This document shows, one piece after another, positions 2,652 to 25,405 of a stretch of DNA of 32,000 bases. Numbering within the stretch: position 1 is the first letter of the stretch; each line of letters begins with the position of its first letter. Source of the stretch: Nitrosococcus oceani ATCC 19707 (GTDB lineage: Bacteria > Pseudomonadota > Gammaproteobacteria > Nitrosococcales > Nitrosococcaceae); contig NC_007484.1 in the NCBI RefSeq assembly GCF_000012805.1, positions 2,580,001 to 2,612,000 on the forward strand, in the 5' to 3' direction. Both the position numbers and the translations under genes were made by a program. Under the pieces are notes generated by a model. It had not been told where the DNA came from. It made no database searches and saw only the letters and a list, made by a program, of their open reading frames with translations.

Positions 2652-3665
2652 TTACTCTTCTGACCGCTTACTCTCTATATCTGTTTCTTTATCCCTACAG
2701 CCGTCTGAAGTGATTCTCCCAGCTGCTTCAGACGCCAACAACTTCTCAACAGCCACGCGTAACGCCAGATTTTGACGCTCGATTTTACGCCGCTCGTTCT
2801 GTAAGGAGCGCAGCAGCGACGCAACCATAAAAACCATCAATATCATAAAGGGAAAAGCAGCAATGATGGAAATCGTCATAGCAGCGATAATGAAGTCGGT
2901 GGGACCGGCGAAAAAAACGAATAATAATAGCCCAGCCGCCAGCAGCATATTCAAATCACTGACGTAACGCACCCCTTTTTCCAAGGGAGTCAAAGCGCTC
3001 AACAGGAACACCACGGCTATACCGGCAAGAATCGCCAATTGTTGAGGGACACCAAACGCTAGATCAGAAACCGTGATAAGGCCGCTGTTGATCTGAATGA
3101 CTCCCATCCCCACTGTGGTGGCTACCCCAAACACGGTAGAGACTACTGCCAGTATATCAATAGCCTTGCCTAAAAGCCCCTCAACCCGGCTGCCAAGACT
3201 ATCGCGGAAAGCCTCGCTAATCAGGGCGCCTCGGGAACAACGGAAGCGAACATAGGCAATGGCTAGCGCCACGACAGCAAAATTAGCCTACTGATGGAAA
3301 CCCCAGTGAAAAAGGGAGTAGCGCAGCCCTAAACTGGCAGCTTCCGGCATCCGCGCTGGCGCCTGGTGCAGGGGTGGGTCCACGTAGTGCGTCATGGGTT
3401 CAGCCACTCCCCAAAATACCAACCCTACCCCCATGCCAGCGGAGAAAATCATGTCTAGCCAGGTAGGGAAAGAGAATTCCGGCTCTTCTCCTTCGGCCCC
3501 AAGCCTCAACTTGCCATGATCACTGATAGCTACTCCCACGCAAAATACCAGAAAACCAGTAGTGACGAACAAATATAACCAGCCAAAATGCCGGGTGGTG
3601 AAATGCAATACGCCTTGAGACCATAGGGACAGATCGCCAGGCCAAAATATTCCTGCAAGCGAACA
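2652..3665 (-). pseudogene. BCCT (betaine/carnitine/choline) family transporter pseudogene
   Basis: ORFs 3288-3608 and 2652-3272 are in the same frame, separated only by an in-frame TAG at 3288-3290 (HWGFHQ*ANFAVVALAIAY, where BCCT proteins have a Trp). BCCT signatures are present: FSAGMGVGLVFWGVAEP and IDILAVVSTVFGVATTVGMG. Total length is far short of a full BCCT protein. After GPTDFI the sequence jumps to a C-terminal-like TM, implying an internal deletion. The N-terminus lacks an ATG and hits a stop near 3666. Confidence 0.8.
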
Positions 3666-3814: not shown

Positions 3815-3868
3815 CACGATATAGCAACTCTTTCGGCATTACACGATATAGCAACTCTTTCGGCATTA
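3815..3868. repeat. perfect tandem duplication, 2 x 27 bp (CACGATATAGCAACTCTTTCGGCATTA)
   Basis: Units 3815-3841 and 3842-3868 are identical 27/27 and directly abutting. They lie 64 bp upstream of the amidotransferase start. Confidence 0.95.
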
Positions 3869-4796: not shown

Positions 4797-5081
4797 TTGG
4801 AGTCCTCTATAGATGGTGAACGCACCCCCCAGCGAGCGTGCGAAGCGTAGCGGCGCATCGAGCGCTAGTTTTACCATGAATTCCCGCGATGATTTTCTCG
4901 TTGCCACAAGCGCGACCTATCCTCGGGAGGAGGAGAAGTGATGCGCGTGGAGGGTGATACCCAACCGGGGGCCTTGCGCGCTAAGTCGTGGCCAGCCCAA
5001 GGCACCCATTGAAGCGCGAATTCTCCAGGCGGATGAGGTTTTGTAGGAACAAAATCGACATCAGTCATGGTGAAACTCCAA
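4797..5081 (-). repeat. dispersed repeat family, copy A (285 bp)
   Basis: The reverse complement starts TTGGAGTTTCACCATGACTGATGTCGATTTTG... and is near-identical to 24755-24960 over about 200 nt. It ends ...GGGGGGTGCGTTCACCATCTATAGAGGACTCCAA. Similarity to copies B and C stops at both boundaries. Confidence 0.75.
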
Positions 5082-5288
5082 GTTCCAGTAGCGGTACAGG
5101 CACAAGGTGCCCAGCTCATCAGAACAAATGACGGGGACAGGATGATATTCCGGCGCTATTGCGAGATTTTTAGGTGAGAGCGGGAGGAGGGTCAGATCTT
5201 TTGTGCTTTCCACAGTGACGTCGAGGCCCATGGCCTTGGCCAAATTCTCGACCAGTCCGAGGACATAGTCTGGTTGGAATTTGCCGTC

Positions 5289-5390
5289 TATTTTAAACTG
5301 GGGATGACTGCCGGCGATTGTCCAGCTATTCAAAAAACCGGCGCCGAAGGCACCATCATCGCCACCACCGGAAATAGCAAGGAATACCGC
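5289..5390 (-). pseudogene. patatin-like phospholipase gene fragment (oxyanion-hole region only)
   Basis: Inside ORF 5061-5522, the segment AVFLAISGGGDDGAFGAGFLNSWTIAGSHPQFKI matches the N-terminal GGGxxG(A)FGAG..L.GW block of patatin-like lipoproteins. No serine-hydrolase GxSxG follows. Confidence 0.45.
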
Positions 5391-5760
5391 GCGCAGTGGG
5401 AAACACGTTATCCTTATCACCCCACCCACGCCCCCGAGCAGGCGCTCGAGGACTATCGCCAATGCTGGCAAACGGAATGTCTGCTTGCGGTGATGAAGCT
5501 CCGGGGCTTCCCTCGAAGACACGCAAATATCACCGATCCAAACCGGGTCGCTCGATTGCTCGCGGTCATGACCTTGGCGCTGTGCTGGTGCTATAAGGTG
5601 GGGCTCTGGTTAGAGCGGCAACAACCCATTGAGATCAAAAAACATCAGCGCCGCGCTTGTAGTGGGGCCCGTTTGGGCCTGGATACGGTGCGCCAGGCTT
5701 TGCTCAATGGCGCTTCACAAGCACGCTTGATAGGCTACTGTATTCACTTCCTTTTCGATA
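5382..5760 (+). pseudogene. IS4-family DDE transposase C-terminal remnant
   Basis: Inside ORF 5274-5849, YRQCWQTECLLAVMKLRGF...ITDPNRVARLLAVMTLALCWCYKVGLW...IEIKKHQRRACSGARLGLD matches the Y-x2-R-x3-E-x6-K block and the following helix of IS4-type transposases. The N-terminal roughly two thirds of a transposase are absent. Confidence 0.6.
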
Positions 5761-5819
5761 AAAAGACCATCACATGGCAAACTCTTAGGAAAACGCTTTG
5801 TTTTTGTACCGTACTGAGG

Positions 5820-6356
5820 TTAATAGTTATGATTCAAGCGTTTTATTAGTTCTCCAGCTATTTCATTTGCTGTTTCGGAGAGGTTTTTTCTCATAACGCG
5901 ATCCATAACTGAACCACGCTGACCTCCCCAACCATTTTGCCACGTAATTGCAGCGATTATATGACCGCCCGAGGTGTTAGTAATGCGAACGCTAGCACTT
6001 TCTGGCGTGCCATCTTTGGCATCCACGGCTTTTGCCGCAGGAACAGCATCAATACCTTTTTCTTGTAGTGCTGCAAATCCTTGCGAGGAGGTAACCTCAA
6101 ATTCTTTTAATCCAGCCCGAGCTAAGATCGTAGTTGCTTCATTTGAATCAATAACTGTGAGGCCCCGGTTAAAAAGCTCTACACTAATAGCCTCACCAAG
6201 GACACCAGAACCAGGGGCAATCGCTATCCTTGAAATTGATTGGGGAGAGTGTGCTAACGGCTGGGTTAACGAGACCTTAGAACCCGCACAAGCAGTGAGA
6301 AAGAAGACGCCCACTAGAACAACAATTCCATTTCTAATTCTTCTATTATCTACCAA
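5820..6356 (-). CDS. hypothetical lipoprotein
   Basis: 178 aa. The N-terminus has a signal peptide with lipobox (VGVFFLTAC). No family recognised. Confidence 0.6.
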   Translation of the reverse strand: MVDNRRIRNGIVVLVGVFFLTACAGSKVSLTQPLAHSPQSISRIAIAPGSGVLGEAISVELFNRGLTVIDSNEATTILARAGLKEFEVTSSQGFAALQEKGIDAVPAAKAVDAKDGTPESASVRITNTSGGHIIAAITWQNGWGGQRGSVMDRVMRKNLSETANEIAGELIKRLNHNY

Positions 6357-6511
6357 CTCTTTAAACGCCCTTTTGATCTATATCCTATAAAGTAGGGTAT
6401 CGGCCTTTTGGTAAAAAGGCTAAGCGTAGATATATTTCGTCTGAAAGTAGCCCCAGGGTGGCCCCAAACTAAAAAGGCTCACGCCTAATTGGTGTAAGAC
6501 TTTGATTTTAC

Positions 6512-6560
6512 TGGTGGGCCATCAAGGACTCGAACCTTGAAGCAACTGATTAAGAGTCAG
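6512..6560 (-). repeat. 49-bp partial copy of the tRNA-Lys(CTT) 3' half (distal att-type direct repeat)
   Basis: 6512-6560 equals 13020-13068 at 48 of 49 positions (6542 G versus 13050 C). The copy covers the CCA end, T-arm, variable loop and anticodon loop, with no 5' half. Confidence 0.9.
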
Positions 6561-6715
6561 AATACCTTTCTTTTTACCTACCCTTACCTAGTTTTAACTT
6601 TTTTTAATACCCCTTTCCCATCATGGCGTTATCGTCTATATTAGTCCCTGCTATTTTTATTTAGTTTTATATAGCGTACTTACGAGGCGCTTACAGGGTT
6701 AAAAAGAGGTTGCCC

Positions 6716-7936
6716 ATGAAACCCGCACCACAGAGAACCAAGCTTACCAAGACGGTCGTTGATCGCCTGCCCGCGCCTACGAGGGGCCAAGCTTTCTATT
6801 GGGACAGCGCGCTACCCTGCTTTGGCGTGCGGGTATCGGCGGGAGGCGTGAAGTCATTTGTTATTCAAAAGCGCATTCAAGGCCGGGAGAAACGAATCAC
6901 GCTAGGCAAGTACGGCCATTTAACACTCATGCAGGCCCGCAAGGAGGCCGCGCGGCTGTTAGGGGAAATTGCCGTAGGACGCAACCCATTAGCTGAGAAG
7001 GCGCAAGCAAAACTACGGGCCGTGACGCTCGGCGAGGCGCTTGAGCACTATCTAACCTCAAGGCCACTGAAAGCGCGCACCATTCAGGGAACGCGGCACA
7101 CCATGGGAAAGTGCTTTAGTGACTGGATGAAGCGCCCCCTGACAAGCATTACCAGGGATAAAGTCGCCGCCAGGCATAAGCAGCTAGGCACCGCTAGCAA
7201 GTCCCACGCTAACTTAGCTATGCGGTATTTAAGGGCTGTCTTCAACTTCGCCATGGCGGACTATACCGATAACGAAGGCCGCCCTGTGATTGCGGATAAC
7301 CCCGTCAACCGCTTGTCCGAGGCTAGAACCTGGTTCCGGGTAGAGCGCAGGCGCACGGTGATAAAGTCCCACGAGTTAAAGCCCTGGATGCAGGCCGTAC
7401 AGAGGCTAGAGAATGGGGCAGCCCGTGACTACTTTATGTTGGTATTGCTAACGGGCCTTCGACGCACCGAGGCGCTTAATTTACGCTGGCAGAACGTGGA
7501 CTTAGTCGCTAACACCCTTACAGTCCAGGACACCAAGAACCACCAGGCCCACACCCTGCCCCTATCCGACTACCTGACGGAGATGCTAGCGGCACGGCTA
7601 GAGGATACCTATAGCGAGTATGTGTTCAGCACCTCCAGGGGACGGCTTTCCAACCTGAGAGGCCCGCTTGCTGAGGTAAGGAGCTATGCGGGTATATCGT
7701 TTTCTATCCATGACTTAAGGCGCACCTTCGCCACTGTGGCGGACTCCCTGGATGTGCCAGGCTACGCCGTTAAAGCACTCCTTAACCATAAGGCGGCTAA
7801 TGATGTGACGGCGGGCTATATCGTGGTGGATACGGAAAGGCTACGCGCCCCCATGCAGAAGATTACCGACTTTATGTTAAGGGCAGGCGGCTTATGGGAA
7901 GGGGGCGAAGTGGTGGAGCTTAGGCAGTACGGATGA
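6716..7936 (+). CDS. int: P4-type tyrosine integrase (DUF4102 arm-binding domain + phage integrase catalytic domain)
   Basis: N-terminus LTKTVVDRLPAP..FYWDSALPCFGVRVSAGGVKSFVIQKR is a DUF4102-type fold. The C-terminus has LLTGLRRTE, HDLRRTFAT and LNHK...TAGYI (R..HxxR..Y). I prefer the ATG at 6716 (AAGAGG SD 7 nt upstream) over the track's TTG at 6710. Confidence 0.9.
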   Translation: MKPAPQRTKLTKTVVDRLPAPTRGQAFYWDSALPCFGVRVSAGGVKSFVIQKRIQGREKRITLGKYGHLTLMQARKEAARLLGEIAVGRNPLAEKAQAKLRAVTLGEALEHYLTSRPLKARTIQGTRHTMGKCFSDWMKRPLTSITRDKVAARHKQLGTASKSHANLAMRYLRAVFNFAMADYTDNEGRPVIADNPVNRLSEARTWFRVERRRTVIKSHELKPWMQAVQRLENGAARDYFMLVLLTGLRRTEALNLRWQNVDLVANTLTVQDTKNHQAHTLPLSDYLTEMLAARLEDTYSEYVFSTSRGRLSNLRGPLAEVRSYAGISFSIHDLRRTFATVADSLDVPGYAVKALLNHKAANDVTAGYIVVDTERLRAPMQKITDFMLRAGGLWEGGEVVELRQYG

Positions 7937-8178
7937 CCAGGCGCGAGAAGTTGCTAGAGGCTATTTGCACCAATCCCAAAGCAGTCCGGTTTGAAGATGC
8001 CTGCCAGGCCGCTAAGCACTTAGGCTTTATTCATCATGGCGGGAAAGGCTCTCACAGGGCATTCAAACGAAAGGGGGAACCCGTGCAGCTTAACTTCCAA
8101 AACCGCCAAGGGACTATTCCACCTTATCAGGCGCGGCAATTGATAGCGATGATACGCAAGTACGGAGGCAACCGATGA
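7933..8178 (+). CDS. hicA: HicA-family type II toxin (mRNA interferase)
   Basis: 81 aa. Contains GGKGSHRAFKRKGEPVQLNFQNRQGTIPPYQARQLIAMI, the HicA/YcfA GSH motif and fold pattern. Its ATG overlaps the int stop (ATGA). Confidence 0.75.
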   Translation: MTRREKLLEAICTNPKAVRFEDACQAAKHLGFIHHGGKGSHRAFKRKGEPVQLNFQNRQGTIPPYQARQLIAMIRKYGGNR

Positions 8179-8384
8179 AGTATCTAATTGAGGTTTTCTG
8201 GAGCGATGAGGACAGCGGCTATATTGCGCTTGTACCCGACCTGCCAGGCTGTAGCGCATGGGGAGCAACGCCGGAGGAAGCTACACGGGAAATTCAGGAC
8301 GCTATGACCGCATGGCTAGAGGCTTGCCAGCAGTCGGGGGAGTCCATACCGAAGCCTGCCGCCAAAGCAAGGTACGTGGCTTAG
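8175..8384 (+). CDS. hicB: HicB-family antitoxin (short form, no appended DNA-binding domain)
   Basis: 69 aa. YIALVPDLPGCSAWGATPEEATREIQDAMTAWLEAC is the canonical HicB/UPF0150 core. Its ATG overlaps the hicA stop (ATGA). Confidence 0.8.
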   Translation: MKYLIEVFWSDEDSGYIALVPDLPGCSAWGATPEEATREIQDAMTAWLEACQQSGESIPKPAAKARYVA

Positions 8385-8649
8385 GACTTTATTTAACGGT
8401 TTTGGCTTTTTACCGATACACGGGCATAAGGGCTTAGCGGTTTTTAATTGCCCCCTGCGTTTTGCAGCAAAACACCCTATGTTGAGTATAGATAGGTTAA
8501 TTATTTTTAATTACCCGTCAACGGGTTTTGAAATTCACCGATAAGGGTATATGACAGGCGTTAAGTGGGCCTGTTTGACATGAAGCAGCCCTAGGAGTGT
8601 TGGCGCACTCACTAGGGCCTAACCATAGAACAATTGTGAGGCGCTCTAA

Positions 8650-8878
8650 ATGGCTACTTCTAATATTAGCAAAGAAACCCCTTCCTGTAATTCACCCCTT
8701 CAACTAGTAGGCGAGAGAGAAGCGGCCGCGATACTCTGCCGGTCGGTTTCTTATATGCAAATTTCCCGCTGGCGTGGTGACGCCCCCCTTCTACCGGATA
8801 GGCCGCGCCGTTAGGTACGACAAAAACGAACTCATTGAGTGGGTGAAGGCGCGGCGGTGTCAGTCCACATCACTATAA
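8650..8878 (+). pseudogene. AlpA/excisionase-family HTH gene interrupted by a frameshift in a C6 tract
   Basis: Frame 1 from the ATG at 8650 reads MATSNISKETPSCNSPLQLVGEREAAAILCRSVSYMQISRWRGDAP and stops at 8812-8814. After the C-run at 8783-8788, another frame reads FYRIGRAVRYDKNELIEWVKARRCQSTSL* and ends at 8878. Joined, the two give a typical HTH_17/AlpA pattern. Removing one C restores the frame. Confidence 0.6.
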
Positions 8879-8894
8879 CCCCCTAAACGCAGAA

Positions 8895-8917
8895 AAGCCC
8901 CGAGTTTACCGGGGCTT
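8895..8917 (+). terminator. terminator-like hairpin between the AlpA-like gene and the primase
   Basis: AAGCCCCG-agtttac-CGGGGCTT is an 8-bp GC-rich stem. It is followed by a T-containing tail (ccctattaatctttt), with no clean U-run. Confidence 0.35.
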
Positions 8918-8956
8918 CCCTATTAATCTTTTCCCTCTCCCAAAGGAATAGATAAC

Positions 8957-10063
8957 ATGAATTATAACACTTCTTCCGCACTTTTGCACCTCAATAAATC
9001 CACCGTCAAGGACGCCGCACGCGGCCAATGGAGGACTATCCTTTCACCCCTTGGCGTCCCCCTACCGAACCACGGCAGACACGCACCCTGCCCCACCTGC
9101 GGCGGGAAAGACCGTTTCCGGTTCACCGACAAGCACGGCAACGGAGAGTATTACTGTAATCACTGCCGCGGCGGCGATGGGTTGCAGTTACTCCAAAACT
9201 ACCACGGCTGGAGGTTTCAGGAAGCGATACAAAACGTTGCCGAATTGCTGAACCTGGAGGAAGAGACCTGCCAGCCTTTCGAGTTTGGCAAGTTCGACGC
9301 CGACAAAATCGCACCTAGCGGTAACCCTCAAACCCCGGCACCACGTCACCAGGAACCCGCAAAGCCGAAGCGCCCGCCCTCCAACATTCTCCAGCAGTGG
9401 CAAATGACGCGGCCAGCCAGCCCCGACCATACGTACCTGAAAATTAAACGAGTTCAGCTTTGCCCCGGTATCCGTCTGAGCCGAAATTACAGGCGGCTGG
9501 TCGTCCCTATGCGCTGCACAGAAAACCAATTATGGGGCATTCAAAATATTTCCCCGAATGGGAAGAAAACCGCCACTAAGGGCAGCGATAAGAAGGGGCA
9601 TTTTTTCCCCATCAAGGGCCAAGATGATCGCGCCTTGTTCATCGTTGAGGGGCTAGCCACCGGGCTAAGCGTGCATGAGGCTACCGGGTTTCCTGTGGTG
9701 GTGGCGTTCGACGCCAACAACTTGCTACCTGTGGCGGAAAACATCCGGGCCGCGTGTCCTGATTTGCCCCTGGTGATAGCGGCGGATAACGATGCCTGGA
9801 CGGACGGTAATCCAGGCATTACGGCAGCCATGGAGGCCGCCGAGGCTGTGGACGGGGCGATAGTATGGCCGGAGTTTGAGCCGGGGGCTGAAACAGTGGC
9901 GGGCAGACCCACCGATTTTAATGACTTGCAGCGTTTGTGTGGGGCTGAGGCTGTCCGGGACCGCATACGCGAATTATTGCCACGGGGCTTTGTTCCCGGA
10001 TGGATTCCAATCAGGGGGGAGAGGGTTACCGAGGCGGCCAGCCTGGCGGGAGGTGCGGCATGA
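8957..10063 (+). CDS. DNA primase, P4-alpha/T7-gp4-type Zn-ribbon + Toprim domain
   Basis: CPTCGGKDRFRFTDKHGNGEYYCNHCRGGDGLQLL is a primase-helicase zinc-binding domain. FIVEGLATGLSVHEATGFPVVVAFDANNL...LVIAADND is a Toprim domain. An AAGGAA SD lies upstream. Confidence 0.8.
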   Translation: MNYNTSSALLHLNKSTVKDAARGQWRTILSPLGVPLPNHGRHAPCPTCGGKDRFRFTDKHGNGEYYCNHCRGGDGLQLLQNYHGWRFQEAIQNVAELLNLEEETCQPFEFGKFDADKIAPSGNPQTPAPRHQEPAKPKRPPSNILQQWQMTRPASPDHTYLKIKRVQLCPGIRLSRNYRRLVVPMRCTENQLWGIQNISPNGKKTATKGSDKKGHFFPIKGQDDRALFIVEGLATGLSVHEATGFPVVVAFDANNLLPVAENIRAACPDLPLVIAADNDAWTDGNPGITAAMEAAEAVDGAIVWPEFEPGAETVAGRPTDFNDLQRLCGAEAVRDRIRELLPRGFVPGWIPIRGERVTEAASLAGGAA

Positions 10064-12036
10064 AGGCTAATAATGAGAAGGGAAACCTGCATAACCTATT
10101 CCTATTCCCAGAGGGCGAAACAGAAGCCCCAGGGGCCGCTTCCGGGAAGGCCACCAAGGCCAAGATACCATCAAGCGCCAAGCGTGCCCCGAAGGTTAAA
10201 GCGGATGCGGTGAACGACAAAGGGACCCCTGCCCCTTCCCTGAATGGAGAATCAAACCCTAAGACCCAGGCAGCCGAGACCACCCCGAAAGCTAAGGCCG
10301 ACAAGAAAAAGCAGGTTGATATTAGGCCGCCTTGTTTCGCGGTGCATGATGATTTTTGCCTAGTTAACGGACGTGAGACATGCCCCGGCGTTTGGCGGTA
10401 TGACGTGAAAGAGACCAAAGAGGGAACGGTCCTTGTTAGAGAGTGGGTAGCAACCCCCATTCATGTAAGAGCGATTACGCGCAACGAACAGGGCGAAAAT
10501 TACGGGTTTCTACTGGAGTTCCTGGACGATGATAAAAAATGGAAAACCTGGTCCATGCCTAGACGGATGTTAAGCGGTAGCGGCGAGGATGTGCGCAAGG
10601 CGCTATTAGATAGGGGTGCGCGCATAGCTCCAGGAAAGGGAGGTCTGTTGAATAGATATTTCATGAAGCAATTCCCCAAGCGCCGCGTCACTTCAACATC
10701 CCGTGTAGGCTGGACCGATGACGGGGAAACCTTTGTATTCCCAAGGGAGTGTATTAGCAGCCTAAGAGGCAAGGAAGCCATTTTTCAGGCTGAAATGCTG
10801 GCCGAGGCCGACTATCCGAAAAAAGGCACCCTGGAGGGATGGCGGCGAAACATCGGCCAGCTATGCGAGGGTAACCCCGTGCTAACCATGGCCGTATCGG
10901 CGGCGCTGGCCGGGCCACTGCTGTTAAAAACGGATAAAAGCGAGGGCGCAGGCATTCACTTCTTAGGCGACAGTTCCAAGGGGAAATCTACCGCGTTACA
11001 GGTAGCCGCTAGCGTCTGGGGCAATCATGAGTTTATGCAATCCTGGAACAGTACAGCCAATGGATTAGAGGGCATAGCGGCGGCCAGAAATGACACCTGT
11101 TTAATTATTGATGAGATAAGCGAGGGCAACCCCTATGAGCTGGGTAAAATTGCCTACATGATAGCCAACGGCAGAGGCAAGAGCCGGGCTAACCGCATAG
11201 GGGAAGCTAAGGGAATAAGACGCTGGCGGATTGTGGCGCTATCCACAGGAGAGAAAACCCTTTCCTCCATGCTGGAGTCCGTCAAAATCGATGCCAATTC
11301 CGGGCAGAATGTTCGCCTTCTAAACATCCCTTCCACCGGGTTTAGTTACGGCGCGTTTGACTGCCTCCATGGTTTCGCTAGTGGGCGGGAGCTGGCGGAT
11401 GCCCTCAAGCAAGCGCGCCACCATGACTACAGTCTAGTAGGTTACGCATTCATTGAAAACCTACTAAAGAGAAGGTCGCCAAACCTACCAAGCCGACTTA
11501 AGGACATTACCGACGAACTCAAGCCACTTGTTAACACGACCATAGAAGGGCGGGCAGCCGATACCATGGCCCTGTTCATCCTGGCCGGGGAACTGGGCAT
11601 TGAATACGGCCTATTACCCTGGAAGCCTGGCGCGGCCATGGAGGCGGGCAAAATCCTGTTTGAGCTATGGCGGGATAACCAGACCGGGGACGGGACCGAG
11701 GATAAGCAGATTCTTAAGAATGTTAAGGACTTTATCGACAGGCATGGAGATAGCCGCTTTCAATTCAGAGGCACGCAACCTGATAAGGATTTTGTGACTA
11801 TCAGGGATAGGGCCGGATGGTTTGAGATGAATGACGATAATGAAAGGGTTTACCTGTTTCACTCTAGCGGTCTGAAAGAGGCCGGGGGAGGGTTTGAACT
11901 TAAACGCGTTGCCCAGGCGCTAGATAGGGCGGGATGGGTAACCAAAAAAGGCAAAGGAAGGTTAAACCTTAGCTATGACTTTAGAGACTTCAAGGGCAGG
12001 CTTTACGCTATCAAGCCAGAATCGAATTTAGATTAA
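10060..12036 (+). CDS. DUF927-domain P-loop NTPase / replicative helicase, with a Lys/Ala/Pro-rich N-terminal tail
   Basis: SRVGWTDDGETFVFP is the DUF927 signature. Walker A is GDSSKGKST and Walker B is CLIIDEISE. I prefer the ATG at 10060, which overlaps the primase TGA (ATGA), over the track's 10000 start. Confidence 0.8.
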   Translation: MKANNEKGNLHNLFLFPEGETEAPGAASGKATKAKIPSSAKRAPKVKADAVNDKGTPAPSLNGESNPKTQAAETTPKAKADKKKQVDIRPPCFAVHDDFCLVNGRETCPGVWRYDVKETKEGTVLVREWVATPIHVRAITRNEQGENYGFLLEFLDDDKKWKTWSMPRRMLSGSGEDVRKALLDRGARIAPGKGGLLNRYFMKQFPKRRVTSTSRVGWTDDGETFVFPRECISSLRGKEAIFQAEMLAEADYPKKGTLEGWRRNIGQLCEGNPVLTMAVSAALAGPLLLKTDKSEGAGIHFLGDSSKGKSTALQVAASVWGNHEFMQSWNSTANGLEGIAAARNDTCLIIDEISEGNPYELGKIAYMIANGRGKSRANRIGEAKGIRRWRIVALSTGEKTLSSMLESVKIDANSGQNVRLLNIPSTGFSYGAFDCLHGFASGRELADALKQARHHDYSLVGYAFIENLLKRRSPNLPSRLKDITDELKPLVNTTIEGRAADTMALFILAGELGIEYGLLPWKPGAAMEAGKILFELWRDNQTGDGTEDKQILKNVKDFIDRHGDSRFQFRGTQPDKDFVTIRDRAGWFEMNDDNERVYLFHSSGLKEAGGGFELKRVAQALDRAGWVTKKGKGRLNLSYDFRDFKGRLYAIKPESNLD

Positions 12037-12047
12037 CGTTTTTGGAC

Positions 12048-12120
12048 TGGTGAGTGTGGTGAGAAATGTTAACCGCCTTACTCTCCCAAGGGTTTCGGCG
12101 CTTCCTCACCACACTCACCA
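12048..12120. repeat. perfect 16-bp inverted repeat with 41-nt spacer, just downstream of the helicase stop
   Basis: TGGTGAGTGTGGTGAG (12048-12063) and CTCACCACACTCACCA (12105-12120) are exact reverse complements. Confidence 0.85.
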
Positions 12121-12171
12121 CTAGAAAAACGCAACTTTGAATTTATTTTTTGAAAAAGGACTTTGCTTACC

Positions 12172-12303
12172 ATGAAAAAAGTTATCCACAATGATTTTCA
12201 AAACCCCACCTTCCGCAAGCACATGGACGATTATCTAGCCCTCAACGAAACCTTGGGGGATTCCCACCTGCGGATGGGGATATCAAAGCGGTGCATTGAT
12301 TGA
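12172..12303 (+). CDS. possible small ORF (43 aa), function unknown
   Basis: My translation is MKKVIHNDFQNPTFRKHMDDYLALNETLGDSHLRMGISKRCID*. Its stop lies 1 nt before the next ATG. It is below the track's length cutoff and has no recognisable family. Confidence 0.25.
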   Translation: MKKVIHNDFQNPTFRKHMDDYLALNETLGDSHLRMGISKRCID

Positions 12304-12304
12304 T

Positions 12305-12592
12305 ATGGAAATTAAACTGGTGCCGGTTCGAGAAGATGATATAGGCGGTACGCTCAATTGGGAGAACGGAGAGTTTACAGGGTTTCGCTCGGGGGTGGTG
12401 ACAGAAGAGGCCCAACATGCGCTCAAGCTCGGCTATGTCTCCTATACCCCGCTCGCCCTCTACAGCGACAAAAGCCCTTTTGAGGACAAGGAAGCCTTGG
12501 CCATTGTGTTGATTAAGATGGGTTACAAGCTGCCTGAAAACCTAGCCGAGAGCGTTACCTTTACCGACCGCCCTGAAGGAGTGATTTACTAA
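12305..12592 (+). CDS. hypothetical protein (95 aa from the ATG at 12305)
   Basis: From ORF track entry 12296-12592. ATG at 12305. The same frame stays open after the TAA at 12590-12592, through to 12706. No family recognised. Confidence 0.4.
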   Translation: MEIKLVPVREDDIGGTLNWENGEFTGFRSGVVTEEAQHALKLGYVSYTPLALYSDKSPFEDKEALAIVLIKMGYKLPENLAESVTFTDRPEGVIY

Positions 12593-12721
12593 AACCTGGA
12601 CGACCTGCCCGAGGGGATGGATGCTCAAACCATGGAGGACATTCTCTTAGCGACCGGGTTTAGCAAGAAGGAAGGCCGGTATACTTATACCTTGCCGGGC
12701 TGGTAATCCCCCATCAATAGG

Positions 12722-12746
12722 GGGCTGTCTCACCATGAGGCAGCCC
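12722..12746 (+). terminator. hairpin after the last island ORF
   Basis: GGGCTGTCTCA-cca-TGAGGCAGCCC is an 11-bp stem with one G-U pair, followed by TTCTGCTCC (weak U tract). It lies 16 nt after the stop at 12706. Confidence 0.35.
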
Positions 12747-13019
12747 TTCTGCTCCCTGAGAGAATTGAGTTTCGAATAACCTTATACTTTGTAGGGTTAA
12801 TCAAGCGATATAAAAGGCCACACCTTTACAAAGGGGAGCGCGTTTCCCTCTTCTTTGAGGGGGGGCAAACCGTTTGCAGCGCCTCCACGAAGCGAGCCCC
12901 CTTCCCCCTGGTTGGAATGCTCTTTCTTTTAGGGGCTCAATTTTCTTCTAACACTTACATAGCACTTACCCGGGCAATTTCCCTAAGCGGCTATCTTTCG
13001 GTAAGTCGCTGTTTTTAAA

Positions 13020-13095
<76 letters not shown>

Positions 13096-17099: not shown

Positions 17100-18557
17100 C
17101 TAGCCTCGCCGCCAGAGAGTTCCTGCCGCTGTATCTTCCAAAGTAATGCCTTGGTCCTTCAGTATTCCACGAATACGATCCGCTTCAGCCCAGTCTTTAT
17201 TTTTACGGGCAACCGTCCGCTGGGCAACTAACTGCTCAATGCCGTCATGGGAAAGGACGGCTTCTTCCCCCGCCGCGGCAGTGTCAGGAATAGCGGCTAC
17301 CTGGCGGGAATCGCGCAGAAACTGCTCAGGCTCATGGGCCAGCAACCCTAAAATACCGCCCAAAGATCGTAGCAGCACAGCTAAAGATTGCCCCTTCTCG
17401 GTATCACCTGCCTCGCGAGCGCGGTTAAGGGCATGGCGGACTTCATTTAACAGGGCCAAGGCTTCAGGAGTATTAAAATCATCGTCCATAGCTTCCCGAA
17501 AGCGCAACACAAAAGGATCTCCCCCATCGGTAAATTCCCAGCTTAATCCTTGCGCGGATGCTCGGTCTTCGCCTCTTGGTATTCCCCGTAGCGCCGTATA
17601 TAAGCGGGTCATGGCGGCTTTAGCGGTATCCAGTTGCTGCTTGGTATAGTTCAAAGGGCTGCGGTAATGACTAGAGAGAATAAAATAGCGCAGCACTTCG
17701 GGATGATAGTGCTCCAAAACTTCACGCACGGTGAAAAAATTACCCAAGGACTTGGACATTTTCTCATCATTCAGCCGCACGAAGCCATTGTGCATCCAAT
17801 AGTTGACGAACTTACCGCCTGTCGCCGCCTCACTCTGGGCAATCTCGTTCTCATGGTGGGGAAACTGGAGATCCTGACCGCCACCATGAATATCAAAATG
17901 AGTCCCTAATTCCTGGATAGACATGGCCGAGCACTCAATGTGCCAGCCAGGGCGTCCTGGTCCCCAGGGCGATTCCCAAGCAGGCTCACCGGATTTGGCG
18001 GCTTTCCACAGGACAAAATCCAAGGGATCGGTTTTAGCCTCGTTCACTTGAACCCGTTCGCCAGCCCGCAAGTCTTCTAAGTGCCTGCCAGAAAGGGCGC
18101 CATAACCCTCGAAATGGCTGACATCATAGTAGATATCCCCATTTTCTCCTTGATAGGCATAACCTTGGTCCAGCAATTGCCGTACCATGGCCAGGATGGC
18201 CTCCATGGATTCTGTGGCTCGCGGTTCCCGATCCGGGGGCAGTATCTGAAGGCTTGCTTCATCCTCATGCAGGGCCTGAATGTAACGGGCGGTTAGGGTA
18301 TGAATACTTTCTCCCCTTTCATTGGCGCGGTGAATGATTTTATCGTCGATATCCGTGATGTTCCGCACATAGATCACTTCAAATCCACTGGCCCGTAGAT
18401 AGCGAACCACCATATCAAAGACGACCATAACGCGGGCATGGCCCACATGGCACAGATCGTAGACCGTCATGCCGCATACATACATGCGCACCTTGCCGGA
18501 TTCAATGGGAATAAATTCCTCTTTCCTCCGGGTTAAACTGTTATAGATACGCAACAT
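17100..18557 (-). CDS. cysS: cysteine--tRNA ligase
   Basis: 485 aa. Has [18 protein letters not shown] (HIGH-type motif), KMSKSLGN and the WHIECS zinc site. Confidence 0.95.
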
Positions 18558-19994: not shown

Positions 19995-20166
19995 GGCTTA
20001 GCATAATAATAGAAAAATCAGCTAGTCACAAAAATTACTGGCTTAGAATTTTTCTCGTTGGGGCTAAAACATGGATGTTTAGCGACCCCCTAGTAAGGTT
20101 GCCTGCCTGTGCGTGTCCGCACGCAGACAGGCGAAGTGAAACGGCGCGCCGAACGGGAGGGCCGCA

Positions 20167-20319
20167 TTACTTGCGTTTTGCCATGAATTCCCGTTTCACG
20201 GCCTCCGAGAGAAGGGTCTCCGTCATATTTGCAATCGACCTGTTTTGTTGTTTTGCCATCTCGACAATTTTGGCGCGTAGCTCGGCATCTATCCGAAGGT
20301 TCAACGTTTCTTTTTTCAT
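20167..20319 (-). CDS. ribbon-helix-helix (CopG/Arc/MetJ-type) DNA-binding protein, 50 aa; solitary antitoxin-like
   Basis: My translation is MKKETLNLRIDAELRAKIVEMAKQQNRSIANMTETLLSEAVKREFMAKRK*. It shows a beta-strand (LNLRID) followed by two helices, the classic RHH layout. It is below the ORF-track length cutoff. There is no strong SD. Confidence 0.6.
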   Translation of the reverse strand: MKKETLNLRIDAELRAKIVEMAKQQNRSIANMTETLLSEAVKREFMAKRK

Positions 20320-20338
20320 TGCCGGAACAACCTGTTTG

Positions 20339-20362
20339 TGTTACATTCAATTTATGGTAACA
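20339..20362. promoter_or_regulatory. palindrome TGTTAC-N12-GTAACA, about 20 nt upstream of the RHH start (candidate operator)
   Basis: Exact 6-bp inverted arms around an AT-rich spacer, in the only plausible promoter region of the RHH ORF. Confidence 0.35.
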
Positions 20363-20617
20363 TAATGCGCCTACCCCTTCAGGTTCTACCCCACAACTGC
20401 GCAAAAGCGGCAATTGGCTATTGAGCTTAGCCCTGCCCGGTTTGTATGGAACTGGGCGTTGGAAACCCGAACGAAGGCGTACCAGGAAGACAAGGTGAGA
20501 AGGGACCGAACTGCTGTCAGTCATGGCGAAACTCCAAATAACGATATTCGCGTAATATAGCCAGTTTCAGAAATCTAATTGATAATCCTTAATCTCAATC
20601 AAAACAGGTTTACATTT

Positions 20618-24678: not shown

Positions 24679-24754
24679 AGCCTTGCTCCAAAAACCAAAA
24701 AAGGCACTTCAATCTGAAGTGCCTTGGCTAGCCTTTATCTCATTTATTCAAATT

Positions 24755-25055
24755 TTGGAGTTTCGCCATGACTGATGTCGATTTTGTTCCTACAAAACCT
24801 CATCCGCCTGGAAAATTCGCGCTTCAACGGGTGCCTTGGGCTGGCCACGACTTAGCGCGCAAGGCCCTCAGTTTGGTATCACCCTCCACGCGCATCACTT
24901 CCCCTCCTCCCGAGGATAGGTCGCGCTTGTGGCAACGGGAAAATCATAGCGCGAATTCATGGCAAAATGCAAGTAACCTGGCCCTCGTGCTCGTAGCAAA
25001 GTTTCACTTCGCACGCTCGCTGAGGGGGTCGTTCACTATCCATGGAGAGCTCCAA
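24755..25055 (+). repeat. dispersed repeat family, copy C (301 bp)
   Basis: Starts TTGGAGTTTCGCCATGACTGATGTCG... and ends ...GGGGGTCGTTCACTATCCATGGAGAGCTCCAA. It is near-identical to copy A over about 200 nt and fills the ogt-rplS spacer. Confidence 0.75.
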
Positions 25056-25057
25056 CG

Positions 25058-25405
25058 TTAAATCTTTTCTTTAATACGGGCCGCCTTGCCTCTCCGCTCC
25101 CGCAGATAATAGAGTTTAGCACGGCGCACATCACCCCGGCGTTTAACCAGAATACTTTCTAAGGTAGGACTATGGGTCTGAAAAACCCGCTCAACCCCTT
25201 CCCCATGAGAAATTTTGCGCACGGTAAATGAAGAGTTGAGACCACGGTTACGCTTCGCAATCACAACCCCTTCAAAGGCCTGTAAACGTTCACGCGTGCC
25301 CTCTTTCACCCGAACCTGCACCTGAACCGTGTCTCCTGGACAAAATTCTGGTAAATCTTGCTTTAGCTGCTCTGATTCAATTGCCTTAATAATATTATTG
25401 CTCAT
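25058..25405 (-). CDS. rplS: 50S ribosomal protein L19
   Basis: 115 aa. Has the canonical L19 sequence ([29 protein letters not shown]) and is last in the rpsP-rimM-trmD-rplS operon. Confidence 0.95.

Follow-up and report, generated by a model that had tools for sequence, protein, structure and literature searches.

Repeat copies in the window

The window analyzed here is a 32-kb stretch of the genome of Nitrosococcus oceani ATCC 19707; all positions refer to it unless they follow a locus label (L0xx or P00xx, used for other copies or relatives). It contains three copies of a short dispersed repeat, A (4797-5081), B (20058-20537) and C (24755-25055), the last of which lies directly downstream of rplS. 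A first-pass annotation of the window had placed the copies at these positions, which were borne out by a repeat search and by inspection of the sequence. The repeats very probably descend from an arc-tnpB insertion sequence (IS) of the IS200/IS605 family, resident in Nitrosococcus and with an ISDra2-like TnpB, of which they are non-autonomous copies with internal deletions. Their ends and coding remnants are homologous to those of tnpB elements, a guide-RNA architecture is conserved, insertion was precise and without duplication, and sites are empty in a relative. The first-pass annotation had left the family unrecognized, with no IS or non-coding RNA match; homology to IS200/IS605 tnpB elements of the same species and a top Rfam match to RAGATH-18 overturn this description, and because such matches in substance name the element, the novelty then proposed is lost. 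The repeat family itself appears to be undescribed, the kind of element already known.

Copies A and C, previously noted as near-identical for ~200 nt, align over 213 nt at 95% identity (4869-5081 vs. 24755-24967) and over a further 72 nt at 75%. B and C share 63 nt at 79% (20131-20193 vs. 24950-25012) and, at the opposite end, 22 nt at 100%. The 21-mer TTGGAGTTTCRCCATGACTGA occurs three times in the window; the chance expectation is zero, also when 3 mismatches are allowed. The termini TTGGAG and CTCCAA (CCCCAA in copy B) are complementary over 6 nt, so the partial complementarity reported earlier is real. The similarity of B to the other copies at its ends also holds, but its restriction to the first 21 nt at one end does not: B and the L015 copy at 10012-10312, which belongs to another subfamily of the element, have ~45-48 nt in common there.

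Further genomic copies exist, bringing the number in N. oceani to at least 12. The 97-aa open reading frame (ORF) called on copy C has 19 relatives in public data (11 distinct ones in N. oceani, 3 in N. watsonii, 1 in N. halophilus and 4 in metagenomes or other sources), DNA of additional copies was recovered from L013, L014, L015 (two), L017 and L034 (two), and the exact 21-mer is present in N. oceani NS58 and N. halophilus. Several short-read contigs break off inside the element, as expected of a repeat. A scan of a genome collection with the 21-mer gave only two chance-like matches, in a betaproteobacterial and a Gemmataceae metagenome-assembled genome; since it missed the NS58 and N. halophilus copies (Nitrosococcus is evidently lacking or masked in the collection), it is silent on copy number. 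The same query had no match in a metagenome scan, and plasmids gave no match to copies C or B (blastn) or to the small regulatory protein of copy B described below (tblastn). A metagenome scan with GAARTGATGCGCGTGGAGGG returned 23 loci, of which only L021, L027, L031 and L034 are relevant; 17 represent a single unrelated conserved protein-coding gene in other metagenomes and 2 are chance matches. The 20-mer GAAATGATGCGCGTGGAGGG lies by coincidence within a conserved coding gene (which reads ...FEMMRVEGFGFDPELLFLIERQGG...) on 17 contigs (L020, L022-L025, L029, L030, L032, L033, L035-L042).

In N. oceani AFC27 (L015), two mini-elements (10012-10312 and 18100-18407) and a full-length tnpB element (11188-12641) all fall inside 8.4 kb, and this trio adjoins a PEP-utilizers_C gene fragment. 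With three more copies in the 32-kb window, the element appears to be clustered.

Full-length relatives encode TnpB

The L015 element begins with a homologous left end (LE), followed by an intact tnpB gene (L015 11276-12559, 427 aa), and has a mini-element only 1 kb away. Its product scores 317 bits against the NCBIfam model guided_TnpB (cutoff 100), 355 bits against IS200_TnpB and 177 bits against IS607_TnpB (cutoff 350), and contains the Pfam domains HTH_OrfB_IS605, OrfB_IS605 and Cas12f1-like_TNB. Upstream of tnpB is a reverse-oriented homologue of the block with which the first-pass annotation had ended each repeat, TTGAAGGAATACAGGGATGTACGACGACCCCCCCCAGCGAGCGTGCGAA...GAGGGCCGCAT, and the 3' end of tnpB plus downstream sequence reads GAAGTGATGCGCGTGGAGGGG...GAAACGCGAATT...GCAAACTCCAA. 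The LEs of the window copies are 75-92% identical to L015 11188-11275 over 44-71 nt, the LE of locus L043 is homologous as well, and the right end common to the window copies and the tnpB-bearing element is GAAGTGATGCGCGTGGAGGG...GCGCGAA...AAACTCCAA. RAGATH-18 is the best Rfam match to L015 12516-12580 (28.1 bits), a segment that overlaps the tnpB stop codon and lies 61 nt before the terminal ...GCAAACTCCAA.

On L043, an arc gene (875-1033, +) is divergent from an intact tnpB (846-1, -) in an element with the same left end. This arc is 86% identical to that of copy B, the tnpB gene starts with MVTQRAYKFRLYPTPQQKKQLAIEFGHARFVWNWALETRTKTY, its N-terminus ..ARFVWNWALETRTKTY matches a coding remnant in copy B, and L043 and copy B are 77% identical over 359 nt. 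A more distant tnpB (36% identical) on the metagenome contig L027 has the same 20-mer and layout, ending in GGATTCCAA. In N. oceani, full-length tnpB occurs as at least five paralogues that form one 90% cluster. In the N. oceani TnpB that we examined, the RuvC D/E/D triad and the cysteines of the zinc finger are present; among solved TnpB structures its closest match is ISDra2 TnpB (8H1J/8EXA), with an end-to-end alignment (E 1e-70). A comparative genomics study of Nitrosococcus (PMC7285500) reported an IS200/IS605 tnpA in N. oceani (WP_002810279.1) and makes no mention of miniature inverted-repeat transposable elements (MITEs), TnpB guide RNAs or this repeat. The first-pass reading as a non-autonomous mobile element with defined ends is supported.

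Copies A and C retain a guide-RNA scaffold

Copies A and C have the same order: LE (~80 nt), eight antisense arc codons, ~17 tnpB codons, omegaRNA scaffold and right end ...AAACTCCAA. This functional strand is the opposite of the one on which the family was first read. Copy C runs along the minus strand as a whole mini-element (24755-25055), with its left end at 25055 and its right end at 24755. The LE (24976-25055, -) opens with TTGGAG, is homologous to the LEs of the L015 and L043 tnpB elements and includes a weakly supported subterminal hairpin. It is followed by the final 8 codons and stop of arc (24953-24976, +; GAATTCATGGCAAAATGCAAGTAA), a ribbon-helix-helix (RHH) gene that is intact in copy B and L043, and then by the 3'-terminal coding remnant of tnpB (24893-24947, -), whose ..GRRGSDARGG compares with ..GRTGSDARGGV in TnpB and which doubles as the 5' flank of the scaffold. 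The RAGATH-18-like core of the omegaRNA, also called reRNA, spans 24816-24892 (-), and the 61-nt 3' flank (24755-24815, -) contains a conserved hairpin and terminates at the right end ...GGCGAAACTCCAA. From the architecture of TnpB reRNAs, the 20 nt of flanking DNA just beyond the right end (24735-24754, -; AAUUUGAAUAAAUGAGAUAA) are the predicted guide of copy C.

Copy A (4797-5081, +) is a mini-element of the same type, with its LE at 4797, the core at 4944-5020, the 3' flank at 5021-5081 and a 17-nt deletion in the LE/arc tail; its predicted guide (5082-5101, +; GUUCCAGUAGCGGUACAGGC) is antisense to the end of ORF 5061-5522. The 213-nt block that is 95% identical between A and C corresponds to the guide-RNA scaffold, give or take a few bases. 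Among the mini-elements the core is the most alike, with a mean pairwise identity of 95%; the value falls to 84-85% for the 5' and 3' flanks, 75% for the arc tail and 72% for the left end.

In a permissive scan, the top Rfam match to the minus strand of copy C from 24892 to 24816 is RAGATH-18 (RF03064; 36.2 bits, E 7.5e-6, whole model, positions 1-71; gathering score 44.9 bits). Ren et al. 2024 (PMC11061315) identified RAGATH-18 as the core of a TnpB guide RNA (reRNA/omegaRNA) with a 5' flank of ~37-50 nt, the core, a 3' flank of ~60-64 nt and a guide of ~20 nt taken from DNA outside the right end of the transposon. The distance from the end of the core to the element terminus is exactly 61 nt in copy C and again 61 nt in the tnpB-linked L015 copy. 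In the cmscan alignments of these two sequences the P1 and P2 helices and the GGAG, AUA..AAAC and UGAAG loops of RAGATH-18 are conserved. At gathering thresholds, Rfam finds only four tRNAs in the whole window. E-value scans of 3.2 kb of L015 and of 11 kb of L034, L021 and L027 found nothing, a result that is uninformative because the L034 core is identical to that of copy C and was nonetheless missed.

We aligned 14 scaffold regions (alignment A1), comprising 8 Nitrosococcus-type mini-elements, the N. halophilus copy, the tnpB-linked L015 copy and 4 sequences of the L027 lineage; they represent three lineages, two of them tnpB-linked. RNAalifold recovered P1 and P2 of RAGATH-18 plus a 5' hairpin and a 3' hairpin from this alignment. 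Standard pairs fill 91% of the cells (96% for P1, 95% for P2), compared with 31-50% when the partners are slid by 1-3 columns, and the covariation score is 0.396, against 0.224 ± 0.022 in shuffled alignments (reached by 0 of 500). We take this covariation as support rather than proof, since the sequences fall into few lineages. A structured RNA, the second reading offered at first pass, is present, but it occupies only ~190 nt beside one end of the element on the strand opposite to that first read, and a closing helix formed by the termini is not supported.

Copy B is a different deletion product

The interiors of A/C and B, first described as swappable, differ because one arc-tnpB parent underwent internal deletion twice, independently and in different places. 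Copy B (20058-20537, +) lacks the omegaRNA core. Its left end (20058-20166, +) opens with TTGGGG and contains an inserted 29-nt palindrome (20102-20130). An intact arc-like RHH gene of 50 aa follows (20167-20319, -), separated by a 34-nt intergenic region from a divergent 5' remnant of tnpB (20354-20492, +) of ~45 codons, the fourth of which is a TAA stop (MVT*CAYPFRFYPTTAQKRQLAIELSPARFVWNWALETRTKAYQEDK). This remnant matches Pfam HTH_OrfB_IS605 at 28.5 bits (cutoff 21) and residues 47-89 of TnpB at 51% identity (tblastn, E 1.5e-7). The element closes with the terminal ~45 nt of the right end, a tail with a variant form of the 3' flank (20493-20537, +; ...GTCAGTCATGGCGAAACTCCAA).

Profile matches of the RHH protein are all weak: RHH_5 at 19.8 bits (cutoff 26) and Arc at 14.1 bits (cutoff 20.4) in Pfam, both below threshold, YlcI/YnfO at 25.4 bits (cutoff 30) in NCBIfam, a weak match to HicB, and matches to CopG in the PDB at E 0.39 and 1.1; its UniRef label is CopG family. 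Since the core is lost, no guide RNA is possible from copy B, which may still provide Arc repressor. The palindrome in its left end, CTGTCTGCGTGCGGACACGCACAGGCAGG, recurs in the left end of the L013 copy (~10248-10277). The N. watsonii copy behind P0014 has it too, at another position (peptide CLRADTRRQ), and the palindrome resembles a small REP-like hairpin able to insert independently.

Insertion sites and host context

As first noted, 2 nt separate the end of copy C (25055) from the rplS stop (25058). Its right end faces the intrinsic terminator of the rplS operon (24701-24725, -; 11-bp stem plus T run), and its omegaRNA is in the sense orientation between stop codon and terminator. From this arrangement, the scaffold and guide of copy C should be transcribed as the 3' untranslated region (UTR) of the rpsP-rimM-trmD-rplS message. 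In the relative L018 (DsbC 84% identical, same gene order) the rplS-ogt and ppiB-gltX spacers are 84 and 148 nt long, compared with ~380 and ~620 nt in the window, so that the sites of B and C are both empty there; the same terminator hairpin follows rplS after 40 nt. The right-end junction of copy B is exact, with ...GAATATCGTTAT next to the element in the window and ...GAATATCCCTAT next to GGTGAG in L018, and these empty sites corroborate the abrupt boundaries drawn at first pass. The absence of a target-site duplication, likewise noted then, extends to the flanks of ~10 copies and to the B and C sites when compared with the empty L018 alleles. The DNA beyond the right end differs in every copy, as guides would, and the DNA outside the left end has no motif in common across copies.

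In L019, where the relationship is more remote (DsbC 78% identical), the interval from the rplS stop to the terminator is likewise filled, by an unrelated sequence of ~300 nt (5597-5940), which suggests a recurrent insertion hotspot. Elsewhere, genes enter the right end of the element and have their stop codon inside it (L013 9039-10004, L014 9093-10004 and window 5061-5522, -). They encode a NUDIX/ThiE fusion, a TonB_C protein and one unassigned ORF, and stop at CCATGA or GACTGA in different frames; these insertions have therefore replaced the native gene ends. The predicted guides of copy A, L013 and L014 are antisense to the 3' ends of the genes that enter the element.

The location of copy C within the rplS operon transcript, upstream of the terminator, and the antisense guides of copy A, L013 and L014 would also suit a variant in which the solo guide RNAs of the same elements are not just transposon relics but have been co-opted by the host, which would maintain them, express them from its operons and use them against neighboring genes with the help of TnpB or of a TnpB-like repressor that is nuclease-dead. 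The core has stayed 95% conserved while the ends drifted to 72%, and TnpB-derived RNA-guided repressors are known (cited in 10.64898/2026.09.24.754181). However, every IS605 element takes as its guide the DNA that happens to lie beside its right end; the insertion sites are not conserved between species, as L018 demonstrates; the core of copy A is altered at conserved positions and has lost its Rfam match; the examined TnpB paralogue has an intact nuclease triad; and recent spread or gene conversion could also produce a highly identical core. We consider co-option improbable.

A classical MITE, i.e., a short non-autonomous DNA transposon with terminal inverted repeats that is moved by a DDE transposase (e.g., of IS630 or IS5), is very improbable. 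A length of ~300 nt, multiple intergenic copies and perfect TTGGAG/CTCCAA complementarity are as expected for a MITE, and IS5 and IS630 transposases have been reported in the N. oceani genome (PMC7285500). The complementarity, however, covers only 6 nt, duplications are absent at the ~10 copies and at both sites with empty alleles, and homology to tnpB elements extends over both ends and the interior, down to coding remnants of tnpB and arc. Reading the complementary termini as the terminal inverted repeats of a classical MITE is not supported, as the two ends lie ≥1.4 kb apart around tnpB in the full-length relatives.

The opposite strand and its ORFs

The complementary termini had also been read as the closing helix of a structured non-coding RNA on the strand first annotated, and upstream genes do read into the element in that direction in L013, L014 and copy A. 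Against such an RNA, for which we see hardly any probability, the RNA-family match, the conserved helices and the tnpB frame remnants are all on the other strand, the termini are >1.4 kb apart in full-length relatives, and the conserved core is missing entirely from copy B.

ORFs of 65-115 aa are annotated antisense to the guide RNA as hypothetical proteins in RefSeq and GenBank (window 24768-25061, +, WP_036497447.1, Noc_2064, Noc_0307 and ~15 others). A family of small protein genes is equally hard to credit: most copies do have a called ORF and 19 "homologous proteins" can be collected, but the ORFs are antisense to a conserved RNA structure and lack any Pfam domain, substitutions in seven copies relative to C are spread evenly over codon positions 1, 2 and 3 (66/79/75), 1-2-nt indels occur (the N. 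watsonii copy P0018 shifts frame and back), and the C-termini differ in every copy. Given the even substitutions and the frameshifted copies, these ORFs are annotation artefacts with no coding signature. Two further candidates were rejected. The 21-mer is not a conserved protein C-terminus (LEFRHD*) or toxin-antitoxin overlap, as upstream genes enter it in different frames, and an integron-like cassette array, raised by a P0015 gene list rich in toxin-antitoxin modules and integrase fragments, was dropped upon finding the tnpB homology.

Proposed origin and mobilization

Under derivation from an arc-tnpB element, one deletion would have left the LE, arc tail, tnpB tail and omegaRNA scaffold that make up A and C, and another would have produced B, which keeps the LE, the arc repressor gene, the bidirectional promoter region, 45 dead tnpB codons and the ~45-nt right-end tail. 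By analogy with the published biology of the family, the mini-elements would be moved in trans by a Y1 TnpA, and ~20 nt of host DNA past the right end would become the guide. Mini-element omegaRNAs could then be loaded in trans onto TnpB made elsewhere, and the TnpB-omegaRNA complex would cut an emptied site, which would be repaired from a filled copy (homing or retention). That the guide RNAs of the gutted elements are still in use, with TnpB paralogues loading them in trans and a RAGATH-18-type scaffold serving an ISDra2-like TnpB, we regard as a tentative and rather unlikely extension.

Several observations weigh against derivation from such a parent, or at least against parts of it. L015 represents a sister lineage rather than the direct parent, with ends only 75-92% identical over 30-70 nt, and the arc-type parent is known only from a 1.4-kb contig of a metagenome run (L043) that lacks the 3' half. 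Neither tnpA nor tnpB lies directly beside any mini-element; mobilization and use of the RNA in trans are what we infer. The perfect 6-nt terminal inverted repeat is atypical of IS200/IS605 elements, there is no conserved 4-5-nt transposon-associated motif (TAM) outside the repeat unit, and the LE hairpin has little covariation. The RAGATH-18 matches of copy C and L015 (36.2 and 28.1 bits) are under the gathering score, and copy A, with its altered core, has no Rfam match at E≤1. In A1, double changes affect only 8 pairs, a number reached by 122 of 500 shuffles, and the covariation signal comes partly from the comparison of few deep lineages.

The missing TAM may have an explanation in the left end itself. 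The first six bases of the element vary by subfamily (TTGGAG, TCGGAG, TTGGAA, TTGGGG, TTGAAG, TTGAAA). The TAM of ISDra2 is TTGAT, which resembles the TTGRR opening the Nitrosococcus left end. These bases, TGGAG in particular, also resemble the AGGAG TAM of RAGATH-18-type IS607 TnpBs (PMC11061315). TTGRRR may therefore be a TAM rather than part of the transposon, a choice for which L018 is the one, diverged, comparator.

Comparison with known systems

On the features tested, the element is a PATE-like non-autonomous IS200/IS605-family element. Mini-elements of this kind that retain omegaRNAs were described by Meers et al. 2023 (PMC10055086; see also the PATEs of Dyall-Smith et al. 2011). Like these, the Nitrosococcus copies have kept both ends and no transposase or nuclease gene, carry a guide-RNA scaffold that abuts the right end, are multicopy without target duplication and need TnpA and TnpB in trans. 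Unlike them, they still show deletion scars (arc tail and tnpB tail), include a second derivative that keeps arc instead of the RNA, and have termini that form a 6-nt inverted repeat, with no external TAM evident.

As in the ISDra2 TnpB-reRNA complex (8H1J, 8EXA), the RNA overlaps the 3' end of tnpB and runs to the right end. The proteins are ~40-45% identical; the Nitrosococcus RNA differs in its RAGATH-18-like core, and in some lineages of the Nitrosococcus element arc takes the place of tnpA. An internal small RHH gene that points away from tnpB, with a short promoter region between the two (L043, with a relic in B), is shared with the IS605-family elements in which RHH "Arc" genes were found to repress the element promoter (Moon et al. 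2026 preprint, 10.64898/2026.09.24.754181). Here, in contrast, no tnpA stands alongside arc and the RHH protein matches Arc/RHH models below threshold; a repressor role is assumed.

With ISFba1-type IS607 TnpBs (PMC11061315) the element shares the 5' flank, a ~73-nt core with P1/P2 and GGAG...UGAAG loops, a 3' flank of ~60-64 nt and the guide. RAGATH-18 has been reported only with IS607 TnpBs, and Proteobacteria are not among the hosts listed (PMC11061315), whereas our host is a gammaproteobacterium. An IS607 origin, considered on account of RAGATH-18, was rejected: the Nitrosococcus TnpB scores 355 bits with the IS200/IS605 model versus 177 bits with the IS607 model (cutoff 350), the right end finishes CTCCAA without a GG core, and no resolvase-type (serine-recombinase) tnpA gene lies beside any copy. 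The Rfam scores are below threshold. The Nitrosococcus elements hint that the RAGATH-18 RNA architecture reaches beyond IS607-type TnpBs and Firmicutes. Correia/NEMIS, ERIC and REP/BIME repeats are likewise short, multicopy, intergenic, beside housekeeping genes and often co-transcribed; they have long terminal inverted repeats with target-site duplications, or simple palindromes, and none has tnpB or arc remnants or a TnpB guide-RNA scaffold.

Other features of the window

Two copies of the 3' half of a tRNA gene (6506-6560 and 13014-13068, 95% identity) flank a tyrosine integrase gene (6710-7936), a gene for a primase-like Zn-ribbon/Toprim protein (8957-10063) and one for a DUF927 protein (10000-12036). 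The region 6506-13095 has the appearance of a small island or satellite that integrated into the tRNA gene at 13023-13095. On its right side, just after the DUF927 gene, is a 42-nt inverted repeat (12025-12143; 79% complementary, 35-nt loop). ORF 2652-3272 (-) is a gene fragment or pseudogene, since its match to the BCCT transporter profile (485 positions) is confined to positions 142-274. At 3815-3868, the 27-mer CACGATATAGCAACTCTTTCGGCATTA occurs as an exact tandem duplication.

Implications for TnpB elements in Nitrosococcus

Current understanding of TnpB systems is unchanged by these findings. What the Nitrosococcus repeats offer is a natural example of the decay of a TnpB element, with two deletion products of one arc-tnpB parent 4 kb apart, in which the best-preserved part of the decaying elements is the guide-RNA module, and with a TnpB guide RNA predicted to lie inside the transcript of a ribosomal-protein operon. 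For annotation, a dozen or more spurious "hypothetical protein" genes can be removed from Nitrosococcus, and assembly breaks at the repeats are explained. A RAGATH-18-type scaffold working with an IS200/IS605-type TnpB in a gammaproteobacterium would, if true, widen the known association of this motif. If the guides are in use, the gutted elements would constitute a standing pool of "orphan" guides that police occupied sites or have been co-opted against adjoining genes.

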